From Bacillota bacterium (GTDB lineage: Bacteria > Bacillota > Clostridia > Christensenellales > CAG-314), in NCBI GenBank assembly GCA_023458375.1, contig JAEWZT010000002.1, forward strand, positions 264,463 through 328,462: 64,000 bases of DNA, written 5' to 3'. How positions within the stretch are numbered: the stretch's first letter is position 1; each line of letters starts with the position of its first letter. Made by a program: the position numbers and the translations under genes. The notes beneath the pieces were generated by a model. That model was given only the letters and a program-made list of their open reading frames with translations. It did not search any database and was not told where the DNA came from. Of this stretch, positions 2,751-61,469 are shown piece after piece.

Positions 2751-3194
2751 TCAGTCCTGTTTTGCGCCGCAATGCTTGCAGTATTGTGCGTCCGAGTCAA
2801 TCTCTTTGCCGCAGCGGTGGCAGTATTTATAGTCCCTCAGTCCTTCTTTGATTGCGCGCGCCGTCTTTGTTACCGCGCCGCTGGCAATATCCGCCGTTGT
2901 GTTGGCTATATCGGTAAATTCTTCCTTATTTTCCCTTTGAATGTAACGGGCGCCGCTTGCCTGTAATTTTGATATTTCAGGCGTAAAGCCCGCCAACAAA
3001 AGCGCTACTGAAATTACACTTAAAAAACCGCCGGGAGCCAAAAGCGCGAAGTTGGGGGAAACTATGCCCATAAAATCGTCGCGAAATACGGTAACGCTTA
3101 AAATAATCAATAAAACGCCTAAACTGAGCGCCGCAAAGCCTAAAACTTTAAGCACTGTAAAATGCGCGGGTTTTTTATTATTGTTGTTATCCAT
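2751..3194 (-). CDS. two-TM membrane protein with C-terminal zinc ribbon
   Basis: 147 aa. Has an N-terminal hydrophobic pair (FTVLKVLGFAALSLGVLLIIL..; ..LAPGGFLSVISVALLLAGF) and a C-terminal CHRCGKEIDSDAQYCKHCG (CxxC-N10-CxxC). GGAAG RBS-like sequence upstream. Confidence 0.6.
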   Translation of the reverse strand: MDNNNNKKPAHFTVLKVLGFAALSLGVLLIILSVTVFRDDFMGIVSPNFALLAPGGFLSVISVALLLAGFTPEISKLQASGARYIQRENKEEFTDIANTTADIASGAVTKTARAIKEGLRDYKYCHRCGKEIDSDAQYCKHCGAKQD

Positions 3195-3222
3195 AAGCTC
3201 TTCCTTCTTTTGATTTTTTTAT

Positions 3223-3624
3223 TTATTGCCTTATGCCGCAGTCTTTGCAAAAAAGCGAGTCGCTTTCTATTTCTTTGCCGCAACGCCTGCAAGGTTTTGT
3301 TTTTTTAAGTCCCGTTTTTATTACGCGCACGGCTTTTTTTACCGCGCTGTTCGCCATGCCCGCGGCTGTATTTGCGATGTCGGCAAGTTCTTGCGCGCCG
3401 TTCTTTTGCGCGCCGTTATTTTTGCCTTTGGCGCTAAGCTTAAACTTATCGGGGAAAAACCCCGAAAGCAAAAGCGTTAAAGAAACTACCGCCAAAAACC
3501 CTCCCGCCGCAAGCGAGGGGAAATCGTGGTGCCTTGCCATGAGCGCCAGCCCTACGCAAAATCCCGCAAAACCCAAAACTTTAAACACCGTAAGACGCGC
3601 AGGTTTTCCCTTATTATTTCCCAT
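3223..3624 (-). CDS. two-TM membrane protein with C-terminal zinc ribbon (paralogue of 2751..3194)
   Basis: 133 aa with the same architecture and conserved blocks (LTVFKVLGFAGF; ADIANTAAGMANSAVKKAVRVIKTGL; CRRCGKEIESDSLFCKDCG). Confidence 0.6.
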   Translation of the reverse strand: MGNNKGKPARLTVFKVLGFAGFCVGLALMARHHDFPSLAAGGFLAVVSLTLLLSGFFPDKFKLSAKGKNNGAQKNGAQELADIANTAAGMANSAVKKAVRVIKTGLKKTKPCRRCGKEIESDSLFCKDCGIRQ

Positions 3625-3796
3625 ATCGCCCCCCTAATTATCTTTAATAAAAATTAAGAGAATATATGACAGGGGGAAGTCTTTAAGGCGCACAAAATTT
3701 TGTAAAATGCCGCCGAAGGTTTTAAAAAAAAGTCGGCGGCAAATACTATTTTGATTAGTTTTAAGCAATTAAGCAAGCGTTATACAGTATCGGTTT

Positions 3797-4261
3797 TTAA
3801 TTTCCCGTGCTGCCGAAACCGCCCAAACGTTTATCTTTGGGTCTTTGCTCTTTTGCCTTATAAAACTTTAAAAAAACCGCCTGCGCGTATGCCTGACCTT
3901 TGTCTATCGTCAAAGGTTTGTCGCCGTTAATCAGGTGAACAAGCAAGTGCCCCTCGTTTTTCGCGCCGTAATAGTCGCTGTCCACGACGCCTACGGTATT
4001 TGCAAGGCGCAGGTTATATTTTACGCCCAGCCCGCTTTTAGGCAGCACAAACATAACGAAGTTGCGCCTCATTTGGCAGCGCACGCCGCTTGCGACGGCT
4101 ATTTGCTGGTGCGGCGCAAATACGTATAAATCGGCGGCAAAAAGGTCGTAGCCCGCCGACCCGTCGGTAGCCCGTTTAGGGAGCGATATATTTTGATAGT
4201 CAACTCCCCCGTCGGCGGCGAACTGCTTTTCGCTTACTTTTTTCCAAAGCGCGACGCTCAC
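3797..4261 (-). CDS. dut: dUTP diphosphatase
   Basis: 154 aa with dUTPase motifs GSAGYDL, VVDSDYYG and RLGGFGSTG. Overlaps the stop of the upstream PEPCK gene by 4 nt. Confidence 0.85.
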   Translation of the reverse strand: MSVALWKKVSEKQFAADGGVDYQNISLPKRATDGSAGYDLFAADLYVFAPHQQIAVASGVRCQMRRNFVMFVLPKSGLGVKYNLRLANTVGVVDSDYYGAKNEGHLLVHLINGDKPLTIDKGQAYAQAVFLKFYKAKEQRPKDKRLGGFGSTGN

Positions 4262-6000
4262 TTTTTTATTTTTTCCTCTAATCGTTCAAGTTGGTTTAGA
4301 AGCTGCTTGGGCACCTTTTTGCCGATAAACGCGTAAAACTCCCTTATTTGGCGCGCTTCTTCCAACCATTTTTCCTTGTCGTAACCAAGCAGGGCATCCA
4401 TATCTTCTTGCTTTAACGAAGTGCCTTTTGTATTGATTTCGCTCTTTTTGGGCAGCAGTCCTATGTCGCTTTGAAGCCCCTTTGCCTTATTTTCGCAGCG
4501 GTCTAAAATCCAGTCAAGGGCGCGGATATTATCGCCGAAGCCGGGCCACAGGAACTTACCGTCCTTTTTAATAAACCAGTTGACAAAATACATTTTCGGA
4601 GGACGCTTTAAGCCGCCCAAAACATCAAGCCAGTGCGCGAAATAATCGCCGATATGGTAGCCGAAGAAGGGGAGCATCGCAAAGGGGTCGCGACGCAAAA
4701 CGCCCGTCTTGCCCGCCGCCGCCGCCGTAGTCTGGCTTGCCATAGCGCTTGCGAAAAACACGCCCTGCTCGTTGCTTTGCGCTTCTCTAATCAAAGGTAC
4801 GGTGTCGTCGCGCCTGCCTCCGAATACAAAGGCGGAGATTTTAACTCCCTTGGGGGAGTTGTAAGACTTTGATAAAGAGGGGCAGTTTAGTATGGGCGCC
4901 GTAAAGCGGCTGTTAGGGTGAGCCGCGTAGGGCATACCCTCTTTGTATTCTTCTCCCTGCCAGTCAAGCAGGTGAGGGGGTTTTTTGTCGGTCAGCCCTT
5001 CCCACCAGACGGTATTGTCGTCGGTGTTTAGCGCAACGTTTGTAAACAGGGAATTTTTTGAGCAGGAAAGCAGGGCGTTGAGGTTTGTTTTGTCGCTCGT
5101 GCCCGGCGCTACGCCGAAAAAGCCGTATTCGGGGTTGACGGCGTAAAGGCAACCGTCCTCACCCTTTCTAAGCCACGCGATATCGTCGCCCACCGTTTCC
5201 ACTTTATAGCCCTTGTCAATGTATTCTTGCGGGGGAATAAGCATTGCGAGGTTGGTTTTTCCGCAGGCGGAGGGGAACGCCGCCGCAATGTATTTTGTTT
5301 CTTCGCCGGGGCGGGTAATACCCACTATAAGCATGTGCTCGGCAAGCCAGCCCTCTTGGCGCGCGAGGTTGCTCGCAATTCTTAAAGCAAAGCATTTTTT
5401 GCCCAAAAGAACGTTTCCGCCGTAACCGCTGTTAACCGTCCAAATGGTGTTGTCTTGGGGGAAGTGGCAAATATATCTTTTTTCTTCCGAAAGTTCCGCC
5501 TTGGTGTGTATGCCGCGCACGAAACTGTCGTCCATTTTTGCTAAAACATGGTTTCCCACCCTTGTCATAATGGTCATAGAAATTACCACGTAAATGCTGT
5601 CTGTAAGCTCAATGCCGAACTTTGCAAAGGGGGAAGAGGGGTCGCCCATAGAATAGGGCAGAACATACATTGTGCGCCCCTTCATGGCGTCTTTGGAAAT
5701 TTCCGACAAAACCTTGTAGGCTTCTTTGGGCTCCATCCAGTGGTTTGTGGGACCTGCGTCTTCTTGCTTGTCGCAGCAAATAAAGGTGCGCCCCTCAACG
5801 CGCGCCACGTCGTTGCGCGCGCTTCTGTGCAAATAACAGCCGGGGTGTTTTTCCTTATTAAGGGGTAAAAACTCTCCCGTAGATAAAGCTTCCGCTTTAA
5901 GCGCTTCAAGCTGGGTTTCCTCGCCCGTAATCCAAACTACTTTGTCGGGATTCATAAGTTCTTTGAAATCGTCAACGAACTTCTGTACACTTTTTAACAT
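4258..6000 (-). CDS. pckG: phosphoenolpyruvate carboxykinase (GTP)
   Basis: 580 aa. Kinase-1a P-loop FPSACGKTN, and GDDIAW, WWEG and NWF motifs characteristic of GTP-dependent PEPCK. Confidence 0.9.
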   Translation of the reverse strand: MLKSVQKFVDDFKELMNPDKVVWITGEETQLEALKAEALSTGEFLPLNKEKHPGCYLHRSARNDVARVEGRTFICCDKQEDAGPTNHWMEPKEAYKVLSEISKDAMKGRTMYVLPYSMGDPSSPFAKFGIELTDSIYVVISMTIMTRVGNHVLAKMDDSFVRGIHTKAELSEEKRYICHFPQDNTIWTVNSGYGGNVLLGKKCFALRIASNLARQEGWLAEHMLIVGITRPGEETKYIAAAFPSACGKTNLAMLIPPQEYIDKGYKVETVGDDIAWLRKGEDGCLYAVNPEYGFFGVAPGTSDKTNLNALLSCSKNSLFTNVALNTDDNTVWWEGLTDKKPPHLLDWQGEEYKEGMPYAAHPNSRFTAPILNCPSLSKSYNSPKGVKISAFVFGGRRDDTVPLIREAQSNEQGVFFASAMASQTTAAAAGKTGVLRRDPFAMLPFFGYHIGDYFAHWLDVLGGLKRPPKMYFVNWFIKKDGKFLWPGFGDNIRALDWILDRCENKAKGLQSDIGLLPKKSEINTKGTSLKQEDMDALLGYDKEKWLEEARQIREFYAFIGKKVPKQLLNQLERLEEKIKK

Positions 6001-9632: not shown

Positions 9633-9723
9633 GGAGAGGTATCGAAGCGGTCATAACGGGGCGCACTCGAAATGCGTTTGGGGGCTTGCTCCCACGTGGG
9701 TTCGAATCCCACCCTCTCCGCCA
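9633..9723 (+). tRNA. tRNA-Ser (anticodon CGA)
   Basis: 91 nt. GGAGAGG acceptor arm pairs with CCTCTCC, followed by G and CCA. Anticodon stem-loop is GCGCA-CUCGAAA-UGCGU. Long variable arm (GGGGGCTTGCTCCC) and T-arm GTGGG-TTCGAAT-CCCAC. Confidence 0.9.
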
Positions 9724-9780: not shown

Positions 9781-9816
9781 ATAGTCAGTCGTTAGACTGA
9801 CTATTTCTTTTATTTT
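9781..9816 (+). terminator. bidirectional intrinsic terminator (tRNA-Ser / 9810..10394 gene)
   Basis: Perfect 10-bp stem ATAGTCAGTC-gtta-GACTGACTAT followed by TTCTTTTATTTT. Confidence 0.65.
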
Positions 9817-10394
9817 GAAAGTGCGCTTTCAAACCGTTTTTTCTTTGGGTAGAAAACGCAACCCTCTTTGCGGCATTGCTCGTTTTTAGGAAAATATTTG
9901 CATACGGGGGTTTTTGCGGGCAGATTAATATTTAATAGCTCTTTGATTTTATTAACGCCAGTAAGTACCGCGATATAAGTATCGCGCTTGCAACAGCGCG
10001 GACCGCCGTTTTTTCCTATTTCACTTCCGCACGCAGAAGATATTTCAATAACTTTGTTCCAGCTTTCCCCACTCAAAGGAGTATTCTCCGTAACGATACT
10101 TGCAAATACTCCAACCCCCAGTCCTGCGCCGCACGCACCACATTGAGCGCAATTCCCGCCAGGGATAATAATTGTTCTTTTTGCCGCTATATTTAACTGA
10201 GATTTAAGCTGTTCTTTACTGCCGTATAAATTATTATAGCAAGTGAGAATTGCGGCAGGAACAATAAAATGATGCACAGGACCGTGAATAGGTACTTTCG
10301 GCAAATCCATCAGTTCCGAAACCATTTTGGTGCAATCGACTTGCTTGCTGTCCAAACAAAACTTATATATTTTTTTATATTCTCTATGCATCAT
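9810..10394 (-). CDS. cysteine-rich protein of unknown function (possibly DUF5714-like; metal or Fe-S binding plausible)
   Basis: 194 aa with about 15 Cys, including GNCAQCGACGAGLG, GGPRCCKRD and CRKEGC. Lies 4 nt downstream of the ArsR gene on the same strand. The family name is from memory only. Confidence 0.6.
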   Translation of the reverse strand: MMHREYKKIYKFCLDSKQVDCTKMVSELMDLPKVPIHGPVHHFIVPAAILTCYNNLYGSKEQLKSQLNIAAKRTIIIPGGNCAQCGACGAGLGVGVFASIVTENTPLSGESWNKVIEISSACGSEIGKNGGPRCCKRDTYIAVLTGVNKIKELLNINLPAKTPVCKYFPKNEQCRKEGCVFYPKKKRFESALSK

Positions 10395-10398
10395 TTTT

Positions 10399-10707
10399 CT
10401 ACTCCTTGCAACAGTCTTTTGGGAAATTTTGTATAGTATTTAATTCGGTAATGAAGTTAGTTATGAGATTAAGCCTTTCTTGATTGATTGAATAATAAAC
10501 CCACTTTCCCTCTTTCTGCGCGTCCACTAATATGCTGTCGGTTAGCTGTTTCATATGATAGGATAAGGTCGGTTGCGTAAAATTAAATTCCTCTAAAATC
10601 TTGCAAGCGCAGGTTTTTCCATTTTTAAGCATTGTTATAATTCTAAGCCGCGTTTCGTCGCTCAATGCTTTAAAAATAACCGCATATTCTCCAAAGCCGT
10701 ATTGCAT
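10399..10707 (-). CDS. ArsR/SmtB-family metalloregulatory transcription factor
   Basis: 102 aa. FKALSDETRLRIITMLKNGKTCACKILEEFNFTQPTLSYHMKQL is the ArsR wHTH with a CxC sensing motif. Confidence 0.85.
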   Translation of the reverse strand: MQYGFGEYAVIFKALSDETRLRIITMLKNGKTCACKILEEFNFTQPTLSYHMKQLTDSILVDAQKEGKWVYYSINQERLNLITNFITELNTIQNFPKDCCKE

Positions 10708-10736: not shown

Positions 10737-11160
10737 ATTATATGTGGAAAAACATTACTTGTCAAATGTTTTTCTGTATTTTAGAAGATTAAAACGTAAG
10801 TCCTCATTTTCAATAGAAACAAGGTCGGCTACTGTCCGTGGCTTTCTTAATTTGCGTTGCTTTGCCTACGGATATCTTTTGACTTGTCAAAGTTATAAAC
10901 TGTCTATATGTGTGCCTTAGAGATGCTTGCCAAGTTGAAGGGTATTAAGCTTGTATCTTTTTGTATTGCAAGCGACTTTGCTATTGCATTGGCAGCATAA
11001 GAGGTAGCCTTCTAATATTTAAATATATCTCTATCTTGAATTAACTGCGGAATTACTCAAAGGCAATTTTTACGTCTTGACCGTCGTAGCTGTTAAATGC
11101 GGTATTTGCATAAGCAGAATATTATTAGACACTTATATTTTTTCCCCTTTTTTTAAAATA

Positions 11161-11195
11161 ATACTATACAAATACAACTATTGGTTGTATAGTAT
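11161..11195. promoter_or_regulatory. nested palindrome; candidate operator of the LexA-like repressor
   Basis: Outer 11-bp perfect arms ATACTATACAA / TTGTATAGTAT with a 13-nt centre. Inner arms ATACAAC-N5-GTTGTAT. Ends 17 nt before the ATG at 11213 and just before the GAGGT RBS. Confidence 0.5.
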
Positions 11196-11212
11196 TGTAA
11201 GAGGTAAATGCT

Positions 11213-11809
11213 ATGCTGGCAAAAACGTTAAAACAGTTGCGAAAAGAAAAAGGGCTGACGCAGGGGGAACTTGCGGCGCGTTTTGGCGTAACGCAGCAGG
11301 CGATTGCGAAATGGGAAGCGGGCAAGGCTTTGCCCGAGCTTGAAACGGTTTCGCGCATCGCAGCTTTTTTTGGCGTTACAGTTGACTATTTGCTGGGCGG
11401 GGAGAGCTTAGCCGACGCCGCGGCGCCTCTTTCAAACGTGCGCATTATAGGCGCGGTAAGGGCGGGCTATAATGCTTTTGCCCTTGAAGAAGATTTGGGC
11501 AGCGCCTTTGCGCAAGTTAAAGACGGTTCCGCTTACCGCTATCTTTTGGTAAAGGGCGACTCTATGGCGCCCTATATCCGCGAGGGCGACCTTGCGCTCG
11601 TTCATATTCAGCCGCAGCTTAATAACGGCGATTTGGGCGTCGTTATTTACGGCGACAACGAGGCGACGCTTAAAAAATTTTATTATAACGACGGAAAAGT
11701 TACCTTAGTTCCCTTTAACGAAGCTTATGACACTTTAACGCTAAGCGGATGCGAATTGGAAAAGCTTGTAATCTTCGGAAAGGTTTTGGAAACCAAGACC
11801 AACTGGTAA
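11213..11809 (+). CDS. LexA-like repressor: XRE-type HTH + S24 self-cleaving peptidase domain
   Basis: 198 aa. N-terminal LKQLRKEKGLTQGELAARFGVTQQAIAKWEAG (HTH_3), a possible Ala-Gly cleavage site (VRAGYN), an S24 serine motif KGDSMAPYIREGD, and a downstream Lys (ATLKKF). Confidence 0.85.
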   Translation: MLAKTLKQLRKEKGLTQGELAARFGVTQQAIAKWEAGKALPELETVSRIAAFFGVTVDYLLGGESLADAAAPLSNVRIIGAVRAGYNAFALEEDLGSAFAQVKDGSAYRYLLVKGDSMAPYIREGDLALVHIQPQLNNGDLGVVIYGDNEATLKKFYYNDGKVTLVPFNEAYDTLTLSGCELEKLVIFGKVLETKTNW

Positions 11810-11820
11810 CGGTGCAGCGT

Positions 11821-13137
11821 ATGGAATTAATGGAAAAGCTTACAATCCTTGCCGACAGCGCCAAATACGACGCGGCTTGCACCTCGTCGGGGGCGGACCG
11901 GCAAGGCAAAACCGTCGCCGCAGGCTGCTGCCATTCTTTTTCCGCCGACGGCAGGTGCATAAGTCTGCTAAAAGTGCTGCTGACCAACTATTGCATTTAT
12001 GACTGTAAGTATTGCGTCAACAGGGCGAGCAACGACTGCAAACGAACCGCTTTTACTCCGCAGGAACTTGCCAAGCTTACGGTAGAGTTTTACAGACGCA
12101 ATTATATTGAAGGGCTGTTTTTGTCCAGCGGCATTATCCGCAGCCCCGACTACACAATGGAGCAGATGATTTCCGTTTTGCAACTTTTGCGCTACAATTA
12201 CAACTTCTGGGGCTATATCCACGCCAAGGCAATTCCCGGCGCAAGCCCCGAGCTTGTCCGCCGCATGGGGTTTTTGGCTGACCGGCTAAGCGTTAATGTG
12301 GAATTGCCCAGCGAGCAAAGCCTTAGCCTTCTCGCCCCCGACAAAAAGCGTGAGGCTATTTTTTCGCCCATGAACCAAATATGCAGGGAAGTCAAGGAAA
12401 ACCGCCAGGAGCTTGTGGTATATAAAAAGGCGCAGACCTTTGCGTCGGCGGGGCAGGCTACGCAAATGATTATAGGCGCAAGCCCCGAAACGGACTTTCA
12501 AATTATTACCCTTGCCTCGGCGCTTTATAGTAAATACGCTTTAAAGCGCGTCTTTTACTCGGCATATATTCCCGCGGTGGAAGACTCACTTTTACCTGCG
12601 CTTAACGTAAAGCCGCCCCTTTTGCGCGAGCACCGCCTTTACCAGGCGGACTGGCTGATGCGCCAATACGGCTTTAAGGCGGAAGAAATTTTAAGTCCCC
12701 AAACGCCCAACTTCAACCCTTACCTTGACCCTAAATGCAACTGGGCAATAAATAATTTGGGGAATTTTCCCGTTGACGTAAATTCCGCCTCCCTTGACGT
12801 TTTACTGCGCGTGCCCGGCATCGGACCCACAAGCGCAAGGCGTATCGTAGTCGCGCGCAGAAACGGCAAACTGGGGCTTGCCGAGCTTAAACGACTGGGG
12901 GTGGTGTTAAAGCGGGCGAAGTATTTTATTAGCGCTTCCGACCTGCTTTCAAACGCGGGGCTTAGCAAAGAAATGACGGTTCGCGCGCTGATAGACCCAA
13001 AGGTTTATTCTTTCGGCGTTGAGCAGTTATCTTTTTTTGAGTTTGGAAAAGGGTTGCGCCTGCCGACGGCGCAAGACGTAAAATCGGTAACGGAAGGGGT
13101 GGAGGAAGCGGTGTTATGCCTGACGTCAAGCATTTAG
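11821..13137 (+). CDS. putative DNA modification/repair radical-SAM protein (TIGR03916-like)
   Basis: Start moved to ATG 11821 (MELMEKLTILADSAKYDAACTSSG), 12 nt after the repressor stop. Radical-SAM CxxxCxxC is CIYDCKYCVN. C-terminal helix-hairpin-helix is LLRVPGIGPTSARRIV. Confidence 0.85.
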   Translation: MELMEKLTILADSAKYDAACTSSGADRQGKTVAAGCCHSFSADGRCISLLKVLLTNYCIYDCKYCVNRASNDCKRTAFTPQELAKLTVEFYRRNYIEGLFLSSGIIRSPDYTMEQMISVLQLLRYNYNFWGYIHAKAIPGASPELVRRMGFLADRLSVNVELPSEQSLSLLAPDKKREAIFSPMNQICREVKENRQELVVYKKAQTFASAGQATQMIIGASPETDFQIITLASALYSKYALKRVFYSAYIPAVEDSLLPALNVKPPLLREHRLYQADWLMRQYGFKAEEILSPQTPNFNPYLDPKCNWAINNLGNFPVDVNSASLDVLLRVPGIGPTSARRIVVARRNGKLGLAELKRLGVVLKRAKYFISASDLLSNAGLSKEMTVRALIDPKVYSFGVEQLSFFEFGKGLRLPTAQDVKSVTEGVEEAVLCLTSSI

Positions 13138-13901
13138 AAAAAGCCGCACACGTCGTTTATATTTATGACGGCAGCTTTGAGGGTTTTTTGTGCTGTGTGT
13201 TTGAAAGCGTTTATTTAAAGGAGTTTCCCTTTGACATTTTGCGCGAGGAAGAAGGGCAATTGACGCTTTTGGACGCAAGGCTTATTTTAACGGAGGGCAA
13301 AAAGGCTGAGCGCGTGCGTAAATCAATTCCTTTAAGAATTTCGCAGCGCGCCCTTGAACTTGCGGTAAGGGTGTTTTGCAGCGCTTTGGCAAGAAAAGAA
13401 ATGCTGCTTTTAGAGTTTCTTTTGCGCGGTTACAAAGAGGGGGGAAAGATTTGCTTTATGCTGGCGGACCCCCTTGTTTCGCCCCTTTTGAAAGCGGAAA
13501 AGCACCTTTTGGGCGAAGCCCACCTTTTAAAGGGGTTTGTGCGCTTTGCCGACGCAGGCGGCGCGCTTGTCGCGGCAATTTCTCCCAAAAACTTTATTCT
13601 GCCCTTTATAGCGCAGCATTTTGTTATGCGCTACGATAAAGAGCGGTTTATGATTTTTGATAAAACCAACAAGGCGGCGCTGCTTTATCAAGGGGGAAAT
13701 GCGGAAATTGTCCGCGTTGACGGTATGGAATTTCCAGATATTTCGCAGGAAGAGGAAAGATATCAGGCGCTTTGGAAGGGTTTTTACAATACCATTGCAA
13801 TTAAAAGCCGCGAAAATCCGCGTTGCAGAATGACGCATATGCCCAAAAGATATTGGGAGAATATGACGGAAGTAAGCGAGCTTGTGCGCCCGAAAAATTA
13901 A
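13116..13901 (+). CDS. DUF4130 / TIGR03915-like 'probable DNA metabolism protein' (partner of the radical-SAM protein)
   Basis: 261 aa, overlapping the radical-SAM gene by 22 nt. Blocks YIYDGSFEGFLCCVFES, GFVRF, FYNTIAIKSRENPRCRMTHMPKRYWENMTE match my memory of this family. Confidence 0.8.
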   Translation: MPDVKHLEKAAHVVYIYDGSFEGFLCCVFESVYLKEFPFDILREEEGQLTLLDARLILTEGKKAERVRKSIPLRISQRALELAVRVFCSALARKEMLLLEFLLRGYKEGGKICFMLADPLVSPLLKAEKHLLGEAHLLKGFVRFADAGGALVAAISPKNFILPFIAQHFVMRYDKERFMIFDKTNKAALLYQGGNAEIVRVDGMEFPDISQEEERYQALWKGFYNTIAIKSRENPRCRMTHMPKRYWENMTEVSELVRPKN

Positions 13902-13990: not shown

Positions 13991-14278
13991 ATGCTATACT
14001 GCGAAAAATGCATGCGCTTTGCGGGGGATTGTTACTGCGGCGCAAGAAAATATAGAGAAATAAAAGAAAACGACCCCGTATTTTTGACGGTGAAGGACGC
14101 GCTTACCTCGGGTCAAATTGAACCCATACTTAACGAAAACAACATACCTTATATCAAAAGGGGCAGGCTGGGCGCGGGGCTTGTTACCAGGTTAGGACCC
14201 ATGCTTGAAACATACACCTTTTTCGTCCCCTACGGCGCTTATGAGAAGGCGAAAGACCTTATTGCCGTTTTTGAATAG
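13991..14278 (+). CDS. small hypothetical protein with N-terminal Cys cluster (DUF2007-like fold possible)
   Basis: 95 aa with CEKC..CYC at the N-terminus. GGAGGA RBS 7 nt upstream of the ATG. Confidence 0.5.
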   Translation: MLYCEKCMRFAGDCYCGARKYREIKENDPVFLTVKDALTSGQIEPILNENNIPYIKRGRLGAGLVTRLGPMLETYTFFVPYGAYEKAKDLIAVFE

Positions 14279-14575
14279 CGGTTTCTTTTAGGAGTTGAAG
14301 CCCTTATTAAGGCGCGGAACGCTTAAAATTGCGCCTTTATATTATTTCTTGCGTTTAATTTTCTAACCGATTGCATATTTCCGTTTTTATAAATAAGCAT
14401 ATCAAAATAAAATGGCTGCTGACGCGTTTTTAAGACGCGCCGCTATTTCTCAAAAGGTTTAAGCTTTGCAATAGTTCAAAAGTATTTGCTATACAAAAAC
14501 AATAAACTTGCGGCATTTTTCGTTGCCTTAGCTCATCAGGAGTTGCCGCTTCCCAAAGGGTTAAAACGCAAGTCG

Positions 14576-19815: not shown

Positions 19816-20151
19816 ATGAGATTAAGAGAGCTAAGGGAAGAAAAGGGCTTATATCAAAAAGACATAGGAAAACTTTTAGGAAAAGTATCTAATTGTATAT
19901 CAAACTGGGAAACAGGAACTACAGAACCTTCAATAAAAGATATTATTAAGCTTGCAGATTATTTTCAGGTTAGCACTGATTATTTGTTGGGACGAGAAAA
20001 TGATTATGGATTTGTAGAGGTTAAAGGCATTGAGCTTTCAAAAATTCAAAAAGTAATGATAAATATCTTTGATAAATTAAACGCTTCGGGGCAATTGAAA
20101 GCGGTTTCCTATGCGGAAGGGTTAGCAGAAAGCCCCGAATTCAAAAAATGA
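19816..20151 (+). CDS. XRE-family helix-turn-helix transcriptional regulator
   Basis: 111 aa. LRELREEKGLYQKDIGKLLGKVSNCISNWETGTTEPSIKDIIKLADYFQVSTDYLLGRE. Divergent from the 19668 gene. Confidence 0.8.
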   Translation: MRLRELREEKGLYQKDIGKLLGKVSNCISNWETGTTEPSIKDIIKLADYFQVSTDYLLGRENDYGFVEVKGIELSKIQKVMINIFDKLNASGQLKAVSYAEGLAESPEFKK

Positions 20152-21419: not shown

Positions 21420-21600
21420 CCGAGCGCGGCATTTTGAGGCTTTTGCGGCAGGTCTCCTGACTTAAAGGCTTAACCTTGAAAAAAATCGCCTTCTCGCGCA
21501 AACGCAATGGCTTTAACCTTTTTTCTCGTATCCTTTTACAGTAGCGGGGGCTGCGGAGGCTTTTAACTTCCTTCCCTGTTAGTGCTTGTTTAAGCAACCG
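21420..21600 (-). promoter_or_regulatory. cobalamin (B12) riboswitch aptamer
   Basis: Minus strand reads AACAGGGAAGGAAGTTAAAAGCCTCCGCAGCCCCCGCTACTGTAA (GGGAA...GCAGCCCCCGC.ACTG core) and the B12 box AGTCAGGAGACCTGCC (21448-21462). Confidence 0.8.
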
Positions 21601-22149
21601 AAAAAGCTATTAAGTTAATCTTATTTTAACCTTTTTGAAAGGTAAAGTCAACCCCCGCCTAATAATCAGGGGCAAAAAATGTAGATTATAGCTTCAATTA
21701 TATCGGTAATTAAATTGATGGGCGGTAATGAAAATATTTCGTTTAAAGCCTTTAAATGGAGAGCATTATAAATTAATATTCAAAATGACGATTGAAGGCG
21801 TTTTAATTATTGTGTAAAGGCTTTTACGCTCGGTATAAAGGTTCTCAGCAATGATTTTGACGCAAGCTGTCAATAAACGTTTTAAAAAGCGCAAAGTAAT
21901 TTTAGCAAGAAAAAGGCCCCTGTGAAAGGGGCTTTATTTTGCTTTTTATGCTTTGTCTTCGGTTGCCGCTAAGCTTTCCTTTTGCGCTTCATACTGCTTA
22001 TTAAAAGCTTTTTGTACTTGCTTTTTCAAAAGTTAGTTTATCTGTCTTTTTGATTTTCTAGCCGTGCGCTATAATTTTTCAATTCGGGTTTTGTGTGCTT
22101 TTGCGCTTAGCTGTTGCTTGTTTATAACGCATTTGCGCAGTTTCCGCAT

Positions 22150-52757: not shown

Positions 52758-53180
52758 ATGTTGGCATTATTTTTTGCTGACGCGCAACAGGGGTGGCTGT
52801 GGATTTCCTTAGGCATCGCGGTTTTGGTTATCATAGCGTTAATTTGGGTTTTAGTAGACAAAAAAATCAAAAAAGACAGAAGGGACAGGTTGAAGGTGCA
52901 GGAAGGGGACTTTGCAAAGCCTTTGCTTAGCGACAGGAACGAAATGTTCATCAACCTGCCGCGCAACGTTACCTACGCCGTGGGCGAAAAAAAGGGTAAC
53001 CCCATAAAACCGGGCAGATATATTCTTAAAAACTCAATTGAGAGCGAAAAGGCCGACGTCAACGTGCGCTATAACGGCTTGGTCAAAGAGTTTAAAAACG
53101 GCGGCAAAATCACTTTGGGCGAGGGGGACAGCATTTGCTGCGTATCCTCTTCCGCCGTCATAATTGCCGACCTTGACTAA
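52758..53180 (+). CDS. hypothetical single-TM protein
   Basis: Start set at ATG 52758 behind GGGAGGTAGAGG. Has an N-terminal TM helix and a small soluble domain. Confidence 0.5.
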   Translation: MLALFFADAQQGWLWISLGIAVLVIIALIWVLVDKKIKKDRRDRLKVQEGDFAKPLLSDRNEMFINLPRNVTYAVGEKKGNPIKPGRYILKNSIESEKADVNVRYNGLVKEFKNGGKITLGEGDSICCVSSSAVIIADLD

Positions 53181-53838
53181 CTTGCGCGACTACAACGGCT
53201 GGGAAAATATTTTTATTCCGCAGTTTGAGCAGGAGTATTTCAAAAAGCTCAAAGAGTTTTTGCTTGAAGAATACAAAAGCAAGAGAGTCTTCCCTCCCGC
53301 AAAAGATATTTTTCACGCCTTTGACGTTACGCACCTTTTTAACGTCAAAGTTGTCATTTTGGGGCAAGACCCTTACCCCAACGAGGGGCAGGCTATGGGG
53401 CTTGCCTTTTCGGTGCCCCAAACGCAGCCTGTTCCGCCAAGCCTATACAACATTAAAAAAGAAATATTGTCCGATACCGGCAAAGCCAGCATCATAGAAA
53501 AAGGCGACTTAACCCCTTGGGCAAAGCAGGGGGTGTTGCTTTTAAACACTGTTTTAACGGTTGTCAAGGGCGTGCCCAACTCACACAAGGGCAAGGGGTG
53601 GGAAACCTTTACCGACGCCGTAATAAAGGGTGTAAGCCAAGAAAAAGAGGGTGTGGCGTTTATGCTTTGGGGGGCTAACGCCGCCGCAAAAAAAGGTCTC
53701 ATTGACAAAAACAAGCATTTGATTTTAACCGCCGCACACCCAAGCCCCTTGTCGGCGTATAACGGCTTTTTCGGCTGCCGTCATTTTTCGCAGGCAAACG
53801 AGTTTTTGCAAAAACGCGGCGAGGAAATAGCCTGGTAA
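53164..53838 (+). CDS. ung: uracil-DNA glycosylase (family 1)
   Basis: 224 aa with GQDPYP and HPSPLSA motifs. TTG start as given by the track. Confidence 0.9.
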   Translation: MPTLTNLRDYNGWENIFIPQFEQEYFKKLKEFLLEEYKSKRVFPPAKDIFHAFDVTHLFNVKVVILGQDPYPNEGQAMGLAFSVPQTQPVPPSLYNIKKEILSDTGKASIIEKGDLTPWAKQGVLLLNTVLTVVKGVPNSHKGKGWETFTDAVIKGVSQEKEGVAFMLWGANAAAKKGLIDKNKHLILTAAHPSPLSAYNGFFGCRHFSQANEFLQKRGEEIAW

Positions 53839-56383: not shown

Positions 56384-57994
56384 TTGCTTTTTGATTTTAT
56401 TATACGCAAATTGCGCTTTATAGGAAGAAACGTAAAAACGCACGGAATAAAGGGGGGAGGAAGCGCTGAAAACGACAACGAGAGCGCCGACAAGCTTTCC
56501 TCTAAACTTAAAGACAATTTAAAAGATATACAAGCCCGAATGGAAAACAGCACCGACTTTAAGGTGAACTCTTTTACTTTGGGCGACGGCGAAACTTCTG
56601 CGGCGCTTTTGTTTATTGACGGACTTGTGGATAATTTGCTTGTCACCAATTCCGTTCTGCGCCCCTTAAAGCAATGGCAGCCCAAGGAAGAACAAAGCGG
56701 CGGTAAACTTATAGACGCGCTTGACAAGCAGGTGATTTGCGTTGCCGGCGCGGAAAAAGCTAAAACACTTCAAGAAGTTTTAACGGGTTACCTCTCGGGC
56801 AACGTCGTTTTGCTTGTAGACGGCTACGCCCAAGCTTTAATTTTAGATACCAAGGGCTGGGAAAAGCGCAATATTACAGAGCCGCAGTCGGAAACGGTAG
56901 TGCGCGGACCGCGCGAGGGATTTACCGAGGATTTACGCACAAACACTTCGCTTATGCGCCGCAAAATACGCAACGAGAAATTGAAATCGGAAAATATGAA
57001 CATAGGGCGCAAAACGCAGACGGGCGTATGCTTGATGTATTTAGAGGGCGTAGTTAACGCAAACGCTTTAAAAGAAATTAAATGGCGCTTGAAAAATTTG
57101 GACGTGGAATCAATTTTGGAAACGGGGTATATAGAAGAATACATTGAGGACGCCCCCTTTTCCCCCTTTGCAACAATGGCTTACACAGAAAAACCCGACG
57201 TTGCCGCGGCAAAAATCTTAGAGGGCAGAATAGCCATTTTGGTAGACGGAACGCCTTTTGCGCTTACAGCCCCCATGCTGTTTATTGAAAGTTTTCAAAC
57301 CGCCGAAGACTACTACGAGCGCCCCCTTTACGCAAGCCTTTTGCGCATTATCCGCTATGCGGGCTATACGCTTACTATTTTAGCGCCCGCCATTTATGTC
57401 GCGCTGATGTCTTTCCACCACGAGCTTATTCCCACCACACTTTTGTTTACGGTGGCAAAGGCAAGGGAGGGGACGCCTTTCCCCGTCTTTTTTGAAGCGC
57501 TCATAATGATATTTGCCTTTGAGCTGCTGCGCGAGGCGGGAGTGCGCCTTCCCCGACCCGTAGGGCAGGCGATAAGTATTGTGGGCGCGCTGATTATGGG
57601 CGAAGCCGCGGTAAGCGCCGGTTTAATAGGCGCCCCTATGGTTATAGTCATTGCCGTTACTTCCGTCGCGGGGTTTTTAGTGCCAACGCAAAACGAATCG
57701 TCTTCGGTTTTGCGCGTTGTGGCGATGATTCCCGCCGCAGTTGTAGGTTTTTACGGCGTAGGGTTGATGTGCATAGGGACGCTGATACACTTAGCGACCC
57801 TTGAATCATTCGGCGTTCCATTTTTTGACAGCTTCGGTCAGTCGGGCGACTCTGAGGACGCCCTTATCCGCAAGCCCCTTTGGTCAATGGCGCACCGACC
57901 CCAGGAAATTGCCGAGGGCGATACCACGCGTATTAAGCCATATATTCCCCCCATGCGCCCCCATTCTAAAAACGACGAGGGAGGTCAGCCGTAA
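56384..57994 (+). CDS. spore germinant receptor, A subunit (GerA/GerKA family)
   Basis: 536 aa with typical blocks VVRGPREGFTEDLRTNTSLMRRK, GRKTQTGVCLMYLEGV and AILVDGTPFALTAPMLF. TTG start behind a GAAAGG RBS. Confidence 0.85.
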   Translation: MLFDFIIRKLRFIGRNVKTHGIKGGGSAENDNESADKLSSKLKDNLKDIQARMENSTDFKVNSFTLGDGETSAALLFIDGLVDNLLVTNSVLRPLKQWQPKEEQSGGKLIDALDKQVICVAGAEKAKTLQEVLTGYLSGNVVLLVDGYAQALILDTKGWEKRNITEPQSETVVRGPREGFTEDLRTNTSLMRRKIRNEKLKSENMNIGRKTQTGVCLMYLEGVVNANALKEIKWRLKNLDVESILETGYIEEYIEDAPFSPFATMAYTEKPDVAAAKILEGRIAILVDGTPFALTAPMLFIESFQTAEDYYERPLYASLLRIIRYAGYTLTILAPAIYVALMSFHHELIPTTLLFTVAKAREGTPFPVFFEALIMIFAFELLREAGVRLPRPVGQAISIVGALIMGEAAVSAGLIGAPMVIVIAVTSVAGFLVPTQNESSSVLRVVAMIPAAVVGFYGVGLMCIGTLIHLATLESFGVPFFDSFGQSGDSEDALIRKPLWSMAHRPQEIAEGDTTRIKPYIPPMRPHSKNDEGGQP

Positions 57995-59181
57995 TGCGCG
58001 CGCGATTAAAAATATTGTCCTTATTGTTTGCCGTGATGCTTGTTGTTTTAGCTTTAACCGGCTGTTGGGACAGCAGAGAACTTAACAATTGGTTTATATT
58101 AACGGGAACGGGGATTGACGTAATTGAAGACCCCGAGCAAATGCAGTTTACCTTTCAAGTGGCAAACATTAAGCAGGGGCAATCGGGTTCCGGCTCGGGA
58201 GGGGACTCGGGCGGCTCCGACGATTCAGTTGTTACCTTTGATATTATCAGCAAGTCGTTGGATAGAAGCATTTCCATGCTCAACAGGGACAACGACAACA
58301 AACTGCTTTTTCAGCACAACCAAATAAGGCTTTTTGGTATTGAGGCGGCGCAGTGCGGCATCAAAGAACATCTTGATTTGCTTTTAAGGGACTATCAGGC
58401 GCGTCTGGAAGTGCCTATGGCGGTAGTGGACGGCAGGGCGGAGGATATTTTGAAGCTTAAACTGCCCCACGAACCCAACAGCGGCATTTTTTTGGGGGGA
58501 TATTTTAAGGATTTAGGCAACTCCTCTGAAAAATATATCGTTCGCCTTATTGACTTTGTGCATGTGCTTTTAGACGGAAGCGCCGCCCCCGTAATGCCGC
58601 TGTTAAAAATAAATAAAAGCGAAAACGACGAAAGCGGCATTACCTTTGAGGGAATGGCGGTCTTTAAAGACGACAAGATGATAGGGCGGCTAAACAACGA
58701 CGAAACTTTGGGCTTTATGATGTCTTGCGGAAGTGTAAAAAGGCTTAATTTGGAAGTGGAGGAAGGTGAAAACAAAGCCGTGCTCCATATCGTAAGGCTT
58801 CAATGCAAACGCGATTTAACGGTAAACGACGACAACAGCGTTTTGGCAAAACTGGATATCAAAACTGTCATCAACCTTTCTGAGGTGGATGGGTTTAAAG
58901 ATAAAAAACCGCCCGAACTGATAAAGCATTTAGAAAAACTTGCCCAAGAAAAAATAAAGGAGCTGATTACCCTTTCCTTTTCAAAGGCAAAGGAACTGAA
59001 AGCCGACGTTTTTGGTTACAGCACTTTAATAAATCAAAAAGAACATAAAAAGTGGGAAAAAATGAAAGAGAATTGGGAGGAAATATTTGTAAACACGGAA
59101 ATGACCATTAAGGTTGACGCGATGCTGCGCGAGACGGGGCAAATTTCTGCGTCTTTGGAAATGGAGGAAAAAAACAAATGA
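57994..59181 (+). CDS. spore germinant receptor, C subunit lipoprotein (Ger(x)C family)
   Basis: 395 aa with lipobox LALTGCWDSRELN. ATG overlaps the A-subunit stop (TAATG). Confidence 0.8.
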   Translation: MRARLKILSLLFAVMLVVLALTGCWDSRELNNWFILTGTGIDVIEDPEQMQFTFQVANIKQGQSGSGSGGDSGGSDDSVVTFDIISKSLDRSISMLNRDNDNKLLFQHNQIRLFGIEAAQCGIKEHLDLLLRDYQARLEVPMAVVDGRAEDILKLKLPHEPNSGIFLGGYFKDLGNSSEKYIVRLIDFVHVLLDGSAAPVMPLLKINKSENDESGITFEGMAVFKDDKMIGRLNNDETLGFMMSCGSVKRLNLEVEEGENKAVLHIVRLQCKRDLTVNDDNSVLAKLDIKTVINLSEVDGFKDKKPPELIKHLEKLAQEKIKELITLSFSKAKELKADVFGYSTLINQKEHKKWEKMKENWEEIFVNTEMTIKVDAMLRETGQISASLEMEEKNK

Positions 59182-60302
59182 TAGTAGACAAGTCAAAAAT
59201 ATCAGGCAAACGGTTTATGTTTGCGGTGGCGTTTTATCTTCAATCTTCTGTGCTTTTGACCTCTTTTCTGGCGGGGGTAACGAAACATGAATCATGGATT
59301 CCCGTAGTAATAGGCGCTTTGATAAGCATTCCCATAATATATATGTTCCGCACCTTTATGGTAATGTTTCCCGATAAAAACCTTTTGCAGATATTTGAAG
59401 AGGTGTTCGGCAAGTTCGTGGGAAAATTTTTAAGCATAGCCATGCTTTGGTTTTATCTTACCGTTTCCGCCTTAAACGTATCTGATTTGGCAAACTTTGT
59501 CAAAATTACCTTTCTTCCCGAAACGCCCCGTCTTTTTACAACCCTTTGCTGCGTGCTGCTTTCGGTATGGGCGGTAAGGCACGGTTTCGGCGTGGTAAGC
59601 AGATACGGCTCTTTGTTTACGATAATAGAGTTTGGCATAGTGATAACATCTCTTATCTTTTTGGCAAACCAAATGAAATTCAGTAATTTTTTACCCATTT
59701 TCAGCCTGCCTTTTATGAAATATGTGCAAAGCACGCACATCATCACCGTTATACCTATCAGCGAAATAATGGTATTTTTGATGATTACGCCCTGCGTAAG
59801 GAAGTTGGAGCCCAAGCAGGTGACAAAATATTGGTTTTTAGGCGCGGCAATGGGCATTATAGTGCTTTTAGCGGTGCTGATGCGCGACATCGCGGTCCTT
59901 GGCAACGCGCTGCACTTTTTTAATCTTCCGGGGCTGGTGTCTTTGCGCCTTGTCAACCTTGGCGAAGCTTTAAGCCGTTTGGAAATTCTTTTTGCGGTGG
60001 GCATTATGCTTTTGCTGTTTTTCAAAATTACCGTGCTGGTTTATGCGTCAACGGTAGCTCTTGCCACTCTTTTCGGCACCGTGCAATATAAAAACCTTGC
60101 GCTTATAACAGGCGTTTTTATCGTGATTTATTCGCCTACCTTGTATGACAGCGGCATTGAGCACGTAACGTCGGCGCGCGCCTACGAAGCTTTTACAAAC
60201 GGGCTTTTTGAAGTTGTCATTCCTTTTATAACGTTGGTTTTGGCAAAATTCCGCAATCTTCCAAAACCCGTTAAAGAAGAGGCGGGCAACGAAGGGGGTT
60301 AA
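59178..60302 (+). CDS. spore germinant receptor, B subunit (APC-type permease-like)
   Basis: 374 aa with about 10 TM segments. Overlaps the C-subunit stop by 4 nt. Confidence 0.8.
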   Translation: MIVDKSKISGKRFMFAVAFYLQSSVLLTSFLAGVTKHESWIPVVIGALISIPIIYMFRTFMVMFPDKNLLQIFEEVFGKFVGKFLSIAMLWFYLTVSALNVSDLANFVKITFLPETPRLFTTLCCVLLSVWAVRHGFGVVSRYGSLFTIIEFGIVITSLIFLANQMKFSNFLPIFSLPFMKYVQSTHIITVIPISEIMVFLMITPCVRKLEPKQVTKYWFLGAAMGIIVLLAVLMRDIAVLGNALHFFNLPGLVSLRLVNLGEALSRLEILFAVGIMLLLFFKITVLVYASTVALATLFGTVQYKNLALITGVFIVIYSPTLYDSGIEHVTSARAYEAFTNGLFEVVIPFITLVLAKFRNLPKPVKEEAGNEGG

Positions 60303-61183: not shown

Positions 61184-61469
61184 CCCTTTGCCACAACGCA
61201 TAGCTGTTACGGACAAATGAAGTTTAGTTTCTTGCGCCTGCTTAAACGCGATTTGGCTTTGCCGCGGAAACTATCCTAAATACAATTGAAACACCCAAAA
61301 CTGTTAAATGTATAAATTGATAAAAACGCCCCCTCCTTTAAACGGAAGGGGTTATTTTTGTATATCAATTTTTAAAGTTTATGTTAATTTAGCAGCAGTT
61401 AATTATTTAGTAATTGTAAACCGCTTTTTTGCGGAACGGGATAAACTTTGCTTTTTTGTCAAACAGGCG

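Follow-up and report, generated by a model that had tools for sequence, protein, structure and literature searches.

The subject of this analysis is a three-gene cassette at positions 11160-13901 of a 64,000-nucleotide stretch of contig JAEWZT010000002.1, from a Christensenellales bacterium (the whole stretch, at its full length, is called the window below). Its genes encode a phage CI-type repressor, a radical S-adenosylmethionine (radical-SAM) enzyme and a DUF4130 protein, respectively, and we think it probable that they form a self-contained, autoregulated DNA-damage-response operon under the private control of that repressor. A damage-inducible, self-contained cassette had already been proposed in a sequence-only reading of this locus, and it gains strong comparative support from the linkage of repressor and cargo across phyla, from a predicted operator within the promoter and from LexA boxes in relatives that lack the repressor. 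In the mechanism we favour, a dimer of the gene 1 product would bind ACAAC-N5-GTTGT in its own promoter, between the -35 and -10 boxes, and block transcription of genes 1 to 3. Upon DNA damage, RecA filaments on single-stranded DNA would stimulate self-cleavage of the repressor at Ala84-Gly85 through Ser117 and Lys154, parting the DNA-binding from the dimerisation domain and derepressing the operon. The cargo, a radical-SAM enzyme with a helix-hairpin-helix (HhH) domain and its translationally coupled DUF4130 partner, would most likely act as a complex on damaged DNA, using 5'-deoxyadenosyl-radical chemistry. From sequence comparison we infer that the repressor binds this operator and is cleaved in a RecA-dependent way, that damage induces the operon and that the cargo is active in repair.

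The locus is laid out as follows (coordinates are those of the window):

9633-9723: tRNA-Ser(CGA) gene, 1.5 kb upstream of the cassette
11160-11196: extended perfect palindrome AATACTATACAA-N13-TTGTATAGTATT, with 12-nucleotide arms, enclosing the promoter and operator
11165-11170 and 11188-11193, plus strand: sigma-70-type promoter from a consensus scan (-35 TATACA, 17-nucleotide spacer, -10 TATAGT)
11174-11188: predicted operator dyad ACAAC-N5-GTTGT, inner and off-centre within the palindrome
11198-11206, plus strand: ribosome-binding site AAGAGGTAA, read from the sequence, 6 nucleotides ahead of the gene 1 start codon
11213-11809, plus strand: gene 1, repressor of CI type with an XRE helix-turn-helix (HTH) and an S24 domain, 198 amino acids, assigned by Pfam, NCBIfam and residue alignment
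11821-13137, plus strand: gene 2, TIGR03916 radical-SAM protein with a C-terminal HhH domain, 438 amino acids
13116-13901, plus strand: gene 3, standalone TIGR03915/DUF4130 partner, 261 amino acids, assigned by Pfam and NCBIfam
13991-14278, plus strand: cysteine-rich open reading frame (ORF) of 95 amino acids, without a Pfam or NCBIfam match
14264-14282, plus strand: terminator-like hairpin, the sole such hairpin downstream of the operon

All three ORFs, and each peptide motif quoted from them in the sequence-only reading, are present in the sequence. The genes are co-directional, downstream of the palindrome, and tightly packed: 11 nucleotides separate the stop codon of gene 1 from the start of gene 2, and genes 2 and 3 overlap by 22. 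The overlap had been described correctly; the gap had been given as 12 nucleotides and is 11, because gene 2 begins at the ATG at 11821. Rfam and tRNA scans of the 505 nucleotides upstream of the cassette gave no match. At the other end, the 95-residue ORF that follows gene 3 is present only in the source organism's own contigs and absent from the other cassettes, and therefore it probably lies outside the module even if it is co-transcribed here.

Is gene 1 a LexA? Its product matches the Pfam families HTH_3 (4.7e-19, residues 6-60) and Peptidase_S24 (1.1e-20, residues 78-191), that is, the Cro/CI-type HTH joined to a Peptidase_S24 domain that marks CI/HdiR-type repressors. Against the lexA model TIGR00498 it scores 54.6 bits, below the cut-off of 110.95, with an alignment limited to the C-terminal half (residues 73-192); the Ala-Gly site and Ser/Lys dyad of a canonical LexA are there, and the winged-helix N-terminal domain is not. 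Sequence searches of the Protein Data Bank (PDB) split the protein in the same way, residues 74-192 matching the C-terminal domain of LexA (3k2z, 6.5e-9) and residues 4-66 the 434 repressor (1.6e-6), and the best full-length family match is the CI-like phage repressor family phrog_4 ('transcriptional repressor', 1.6e-42, residues 2-194). Because of these LexA and 434 structure matches and the phrog_4 match, we regard gene 1 as a CI/HdiR-type repressor and not a LexA orthologue, with a probable phage ancestry; the sequence-only reading, which had set it apart from canonical LexA and likened it to HdiR or phage-repressor-type SOS regulators, is borne out by the two Pfam domains and the sub-threshold TIGR00498 score. 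We aligned 22 family members sharing 49-100% identity, together with Bacillus subtilis LexA. None of the 22 members departs from Ala84-Gly85, Ser117 (in GDSM) or Lys154, and in the alignment these residues coincide with the cleavage site and catalytic dyad of the B. subtilis protein, so that gene 1 is probably capable of self-cleavage. A protein search returned 417 relatives at E < 1e-10, the top 120 sharing 54-79% identity and being mostly 198 residues long; those with a named source come from Oscillospiraceae, Sporobacter termitidis, Christensenellales, Defluviitaleaceae and Brucepastera parasyntrophica. A second, smaller XRE-HTH protein without an S24 domain is encoded elsewhere in the window (19816-20151, 111 amino acids) and shares 38% identity with gene 1 over the HTH.

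The repressor is seldom found without its cargo. We inspected five neighbourhoods: the source organism's contigs, Brucepastera (Spirochaetota), Sporobacter (Oscillospiraceae), and two metagenome-assembled genomes (MAGs), from Defluviitaleaceae and Christensenellales. In all five, gene 1 is followed by gene 2 at a distance of 3-56 nucleotides, and the flanking genes are wholly different in each. Gene 3 is present in all of them except the Defluviitaleaceae MAG (L007/L093), where repressor and radical-SAM gene are followed directly by an Mrp/Mnh antiporter operon, the pair being otherwise obligatory. A metagenome scan with the gene 1 alignment added 80 loci; among the 71 with at least 400 bp downstream, gene 2 follows the repressor in 63. 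When repressor copies were clustered at 90% identity, 30 lineages were obtained, three of them on contigs too short to judge, and the repressor, whose attachment to the pair was noticed at this one locus in the sequence-only reading, has gene 2 downstream in 25 of the 27 that can be assessed. These spread over Oscillospiraceae, Christensenellales, Defluviitaleaceae and one termite-gut spirochaete. In most members of the window's own subgroup, gene 2 starts 3-25 nucleotides after gene 1, a spacing by which co-transcription is well supported there.

Upstream of the repressor, the sequence-only reading had singled out the large palindrome. It is real and unique, being single-copy in the window and matched in 0 of 100 shuffles, and it does not stand as the relevant operator: its outer arms are specific to the source genome and not kept in orthologous loci, and the conserved element is the inner dyad at 11174-11188. 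This dyad fills the promoter spacer, and its right half-site overlaps the first base of the -10 box. Across orthologues its context reads cTTTACAaatACAAC-N5-GTTGTAtaAT, and other repressor lineages present TTTACA-17-TAT(A/T)AT at the equivalent position. A dyad overlapping the gene's own promoter is what autoregulation looks like at the sequence level, and the predicted operator anatomy is that of a classic autorepressed promoter. Ten exact ACAAC-N5-GTTGT copies occur in about 950 kb of loci, all ten upstream of gene 1 homologues and none in repressor-less loci. Allowing up to one mismatch, a copy lies within 300 nucleotides upstream of the repressor in 27 of the 30 lineages; in one of the three exceptions (L012) an IS110 transposase sits between operator and repressor gene. 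A subgroup of repressors about 50% identical to gene 1 has an extra distal site, ACAAC-N5-GTTGTTGTCAA, some 70 nucleotides upstream.

With a phage-like protein at its head, the cassette might be taken for an accident: gene 1 would be a prophage or mobile-element relic whose adjacency to the radical-SAM pair has no regulatory meaning. The full-length match to phrog_4 speaks for this, as do homologues of about 50% identity on IMG/VR viral contigs, the G+C content of the cassette (about 50%, against about 34-47% in its flanks) and the tRNA-Ser gene 1.5 kb upstream. However, most of the viral-contig homologues sit at the extreme ends of predicted prophages and are host flank, genuine phage repressors in IMG/VR being at most 41% identical to gene 1. 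An ORF survey, beyond which neither an integrase nor direct repeats were sought, turned up no genes of phage, integrase or transfer type near the cassette, either in the window or in four other orthologous loci. Housekeeping genes flank it in all of these, so that it does not appear to belong to a prophage or integrative element. Linkage, operator and promoter are kept over 49-100% protein identity, and LexA boxes are missing exactly where the repressor occurs (see below). The conserved linkage largely refutes the idea of a relic, which we consider very improbable.

How is the pair regulated where the repressor is absent? We scanned GTDB representative genomes with a gene 2 alignment built from ten closer sequences and took the best 80 among the matches listed (50-68% identity), which make up a sample and not a census; Sporobacter and Brucepastera fall outside it. 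These loci are mostly from Oscillospiraceae and Lachnospiraceae, and also include Desulfosporosinus, Paenibacillus and Enterococcus raffinosus. A gene 1 homologue stands upstream of gene 2 in only six of them. The LexA-box consensus of Firmicutes, established from B. subtilis, is CGAAC-N4-GTTCG, and we searched for its core, GAAC-N4-GTTC, across the 260 nucleotides upstream of gene 2. An exact core was found in 45 of the 74 repressor-less loci, and a core with at most one mismatch in 68. Exact boxes number 51 in the 19.1 kb upstream of gene 2 versus 7 in 867 kb elsewhere in the loci, an enrichment of about 330-fold; boxes with at most one mismatch occur at 6.9 per kb versus 0.28 per kb. At repressor-linked loci there were none, either exact (six survey loci) or with up to one mismatch (11 loci). 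Predicted LexA boxes and the private repressor are thus mutually exclusive at gene 2 loci. Eight Oscillospiraceae loci (L015, L022, L025, L027, L028, L035, L037 and L038) display unusually dense operators, with three LexA-box-like sites about 27-34 nucleotides apart, the spacing being about 28 at several Oscillospiraceae loci; these arrays lie 140-240 nucleotides ahead of gene 2, from which a short leader region may separate them. At one further locus (L047), a LexA-like protein encoded 1.2 kb upstream of gene 2 was considered as a canonical LexA and rejected: it is another phage-type HTH-S24 protein.

Since boxes occur only at repressor-less loci, the TIGR03916/TIGR03915 pair looks like a member of the SOS regulon in Clostridia, and the CI-type repressor has apparently replaced LexA control of the operon here. 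In a rough neighbour-joining tree of gene 2, repressor-linked copies form approximately one clade nested among the LexA-box copies, with two exceptions: a LexA-box copy (L010) within the repressor-linked clade and a repressor-linked copy (L016) outside it. The history we favour is one in which the pair ordinarily belonged to the clostridial LexA regulon and one clade captured a phage-type repressor in place of the LexA boxes. The three genes would then have been inherited as one unit, with at least one transfer to a termite-gut spirochaete.

Gene 1 could instead be the global regulator of its host, a non-canonical LexA like those of Bacteroidetes or the streptococcal HdiR, driving recA, uvr and other SOS genes through ACAAC-N5-GTTGT sites elsewhere in the genome and only by chance encoded beside one regulon member. 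Phage repressors are normally less well conserved than the gene 1 family, whose exceptional conservation, also of the recognition helix, speaks for such a role. In other phyla, entire SOS regulons have come under phage-type S24 repressors (PMC8565304), and the 64-kb window has neither a canonical lexA gene nor any GAAC-N4-GTTC box, a tblastn search of it with the B. subtilis LexA returning only the S24 domain of gene 1. However, 64 kb is too little to expect lexA or any SOS gene, and in the sister Oscillospiraceae and Lachnospiraceae the operon itself is preceded by canonical LexA boxes. Repressor and cargo hardly ever occur apart (the 25 of 27 lineages above), and the cassette appears to have entered the spirochaete as a unit. 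Exact operators point the same way: all those in about 1.4 Mb of fetched loci are upstream of the repressor gene, and the window has a single exact site, its lone one-mismatch site (at 61193) being at chance level. We consider a global role for gene 1 unlikely and retain the private repressor.

The radical-SAM/DUF4130 pair is present in about a fifth of prokaryotic genomes, by its TIGRFAMs description. The family assignments made in the sequence-only reading are confirmed by profile scores well above the curated cut-offs: gene 2 scores 618.7 bits against TIGR03916 (cut-off 343.5) and matches HHH_3 at 2.1e-07, while gene 3 scores 234.2 bits against TIGR03915 (cut-off 112.25) and matches DUF4130 at 2.3e-45. 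The pair counts 829 clusters at 50% identity (E < 1e-30). The cluster motif, C58-x3-C62-x2-C65, has three nearly invariant cysteines. Ahead of it, the N-terminus (window 11857-11970, residues ~13-50) has further conserved cysteines: C37 and C46, which at least 90% of close relatives share, and C20, within an AACTSSG motif. These extra residues could bind an additional metal or cluster. In most of the 80 surveyed loci gene 2 is followed by a gene 3 homologue, and the 22-nucleotide overlap recurs in at least 20 other loci, which fits a stoichiometric complex of the two proteins. A recent preprint reports a confident AlphaFold 3 heterodimer of the DUF4130 and radical-SAM proteins, with a narrow channel suited to single-stranded nucleic acid; DUF4130 is seen there as non-catalytic and DHH-like (bioRxiv 10.64898/2026.08.19.745780).

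Our AlphaFold2 model of gene 2 (from a 26-sequence alignment) has a radical-SAM barrel and, after it, helical and HhH domains, with a mean predicted local distance difference test (pLDDT) of 82.3 and a predicted template-modelling score of 0.80; residues 19-33 have a pLDDT below 50. A Foldseek search of the PDB with this model retrieved HydE (2.1e-8, TM-score 0.40 by query length), HydG, ThiH, PFL-AE, BioB, viperin and LipA. In the PDB sequence search, gene 2 matched only a ComEA-type HhH domain and gene 3 had no match. We also considered whether gene 2 is related to spore photoproduct lyase (SPL). It matches none of the SPL families of Pfam and NCBIfam, and SPL is absent from the top 50 Foldseek matches in the PDB. 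This SPL-like reading was rejected, and a published label of 'SplB-like photolyase' (PMC3765255) is unsupported because neither the family nor the nearest fold agrees with it.

The association of the pair with family-4 uracil-DNA glycosylases (UDGs), brought forward in the sequence-only reading, does not extend to this clade, where none is fused or adjacent to the pair. Gene 3 has no UDG domain in Pfam, only DUF4130, and the motif GE[AGQN]PG...HP[SA] is absent from the window and from 160 scanned loci (L001-L168), so that there is no linkage to a UDG. Two other genes of the window are:

53164-53838: standalone UDG-superfamily gene (PF03167, 2.4e-16), the only one in the window, 39 kb off the cassette, with no match to the family-4 motif expression
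3797-4261, minus strand: dUTPase gene

Published regulatory data place related genes under damage control in other phyla. An operon of COG1573 and COG4277, that is, UDG and radical-SAM, is reported to be LexA-regulated in Verrucomicrobia, Alphaproteobacteria and Bacteroidetes (PMC8565304), and knocking out the WYL activator gene ddaA in Moraxellaceae lowered the basal transcription of radical-SAM and TIGR03915 genes, among other DNA-damage-response genes (PMC12392091). As SOS control of the pair was already published in these two studies, the finding is less novel than the sequence-only reading implied. That reading had also suggested a lesion specific to spores or anaerobes, which is disfavoured: according to the literature the pair is found in Alphaproteobacteria, Verrucomicrobia, Bacteroidetes and Acinetobacter, and this broad distribution argues against such a lesion.

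Would an inducible cassette have to serve repair? The S24 repressor may sense RecA activation, brought about by phage or damage, in the service of nucleic acid or nucleotide modification, for instance a viperin-like anti-phage defence or damage-induced mutagenesis by way of modified bases. The model of gene 2 has viperins among its structural neighbours, one Moraxellaceae regulator governs both DNA-damage and defence genes (PMC12392091), and the preprint favours a 'modification' of single-stranded nucleic acid (bioRxiv 10.64898/2026.08.19.745780). However, the viperin likeness is that of a generic radical-SAM core, HydE, HydG, ThiH, BioB and PFL-AE scoring equally well or better. Genes 2 and 3 match nothing in PADLOC or PHROG (in PADLOC, gene 1 hits only generic HTH models), the pair resides in ordinary chromosomal contexts and not in defence islands, and LexA-regulon membership in at least four phyla fits repair or damage tolerance best. 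We see a function other than repair as quite unlikely. Going further, we suggest only tentatively that the pair performs an undescribed radical-SAM DNA-repair reaction, which would be only the second such chemistry after SPL, and that the cassette is a portable repair module.

Several observations weigh against a repressor-controlled damage-response operon. First, the cargo is missing beside the repressor in two lineages (L140 and L160). At L140 (4677-6002), as at L123 (4650-5921), the place of the radical-SAM pair after a repressor homologue with the same operator type is taken by a gene for an HI0933-like FAD protein, which may be a case of cargo replacement. Second, in the subgroup of about 50% identity the spacing between genes 1 and 2 widens to 76-1300 nucleotides, sometimes with terminator-like hairpins or an inserted gene; therefore co-transcription is not universal. 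At four of these loci (L011, L122, L138 and L161) the spacer, of 76-350 nucleotides, contains GC-rich hairpins followed by T-runs, resembling terminators or attenuators, and no operator, which hints at read-through control as an additional layer in this subgroup. In Gemmiger sp. An194 (L012, 2581-6001), with its IS110-family transposase gene at 2802-4010 on the minus strand, the repressor is separated from the radical-SAM gene by a histidine-phosphatase-like gene (4970-5605), and the same gap of about 878 nucleotides is seen again in 19 human-gut metagenome loci. Third, the LexA boxes were called by motif alone, using a consensus from established knowledge. Finally, the fold of gene 2 has no specific tie to a known DNA-repair radical-SAM enzyme.

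The cassette has likenesses to several described systems. To our knowledge, the spore photoproduct lyase SplB is the only well-characterised radical-SAM enzyme of DNA repair. It is a radical-SAM enzyme working on DNA, as the gene 2 product would be, and its gene is under SOS control in several phyla (PMC8565304, PMC3765255); however, SPL has neither the HhH domain of gene 2 nor its obligatory DUF4130 partner. A parallel for the cargo is the LexA-regulated COG1573-COG4277 or TIGR03914-03915-03916 'putative base-excision' operon of Alphaproteobacteria and Verrucomicrobia, with the same enzyme, the same partner and the same link to the damage response (PMC8565304). There, a family-4 UDG-like domain typically accompanies DUF4130, by fusion or as a partner, and the host LexA is in control, whereas here DUF4130 stands alone under a private repressor.

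On the regulator side, the HdiR-type repressors of Lactococcus and Streptococcus are reportedly SOS-like regulators associated with a umuC cassette. They share with gene 1 an XRE/CI-type HTH and S24 domain of phage ancestry, adjoin the damage-tolerance genes that they control and form a small transferable unit. HdiR is also treated in PMC8565304. The cargo of HdiR is a Y-family polymerase, however, in place of which we find a radical-SAM/DUF4130 pair with the repressor as first gene of the same operon; furthermore, the ACAAC-N5-GTTGT operator is specific to the gene 1 family, and the host lineage otherwise has canonical LexA boxes on the same cargo. LexA2 is said to head the lexA2-imuA-imuB-dnaE2 cassette of Pseudomonas putida and its relatives, beside a separate global SOS system. 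The common trait would be a dedicated self-cleaving repressor that is the first gene of a damage-inducible operon and has that operon as almost its only target, as the sequence suggests for gene 1; LexA2, however, is a true LexA paralogue with the winged helix, and a mutagenic polymerase set makes up its cargo.

The FddR repressor of Francisella is a co-opted lambdoid phage repressor, described in a paper that deals with self-contained, transferable units of regulator plus cargo (PMC13148647). It resembles gene 1 in its intact S24 residues, in the palindrome within its own promoter, autoregulation being predicted in our case, and in forming a minimal local DNA-damage unit (PMC13148647). In contrast, FddR units are divergently transcribed, bind GTG-N11-CAC and regulate dinB or an unknown gene, and Francisella has no working LexA regulon (PMC13148647), whereas relatives of our source organism have LexA boxes on the same operon. 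The non-canonical LexA of Bacteroidetes has a CI-like N-terminus joined to S24, recognises N5 dyads (GGA-N5-TCC and CTAA-N5-TTAG) and includes the COG1573-COG4277 operon in its regulon; it differs in governing a full, phylum-restricted SOS regulon (PMC8565304), while the gene 1 family appears tied to a single operon. We found no paper on this cassette, on its operator or on LexA-box control of the pair in Clostridia.

In Clostridia, then, the operon stands behind LexA-box arrays or behind its own predicted self-cleaving repressor, which adds an independent line of evidence, from regulation, that the pair deals with damaged DNA. The case also appears to be a clean regulator replacement, in which a LexA site was swapped for a captured phage repressor and the module then spread, in keeping with the model of SOS networks built from self-contained local units (PMC13148647). 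Although it would not surprise a specialist of the SOS response, a widespread SOS-linked radical-SAM system gains an experimental entry point, with convenient handles: a cultivable carrier (Sporobacter termitidis DSM 10068), a defined 15-bp predicted operator and a compact, movable three-gene unit. If the pair does carry out a new repair reaction, the value of that reaction would explain why it has come under at least four damage controls, namely the canonical LexA, the non-canonical LexA of Bacteroidetes, the WYL protein DdaA of Acinetobacter and the private CI-type repressor. A cassette with its private repressor would then be a plug-in, damage-inducible repair module, independent of the SOS wiring of its host.

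The rest of the window is the ordinary chromosome of a spore-former, with genes for SelB and tRNA-Sec, phosphoenolpyruvate carboxykinase, transketolase and a GerA operon. Further features are:

133-1857: SelB gene
2354-2449: tRNA-Sec gene
9810-10707: divergent pair encoding an ArsR-family regulator and a DUF5714 protein, close to the cassette
10765-10737, minus strand: perfect TTGACA-17-TATAAT promoter for this divergent ArsR/DUF5714 pair
21430-21617, minus strand: cobalamin riboswitch (Rfam RF00174, 105.9 bits), upstream of minus-strand ORFs without a Pfam match
56384-60302: GerA/GerAC/spore-permease germination operon

The germination operon identifies the source organism as a spore-former. 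The DUF5714 protein weakly matches the NCBIfam model for the 'metal-binding double selenoprotein MbdU'.

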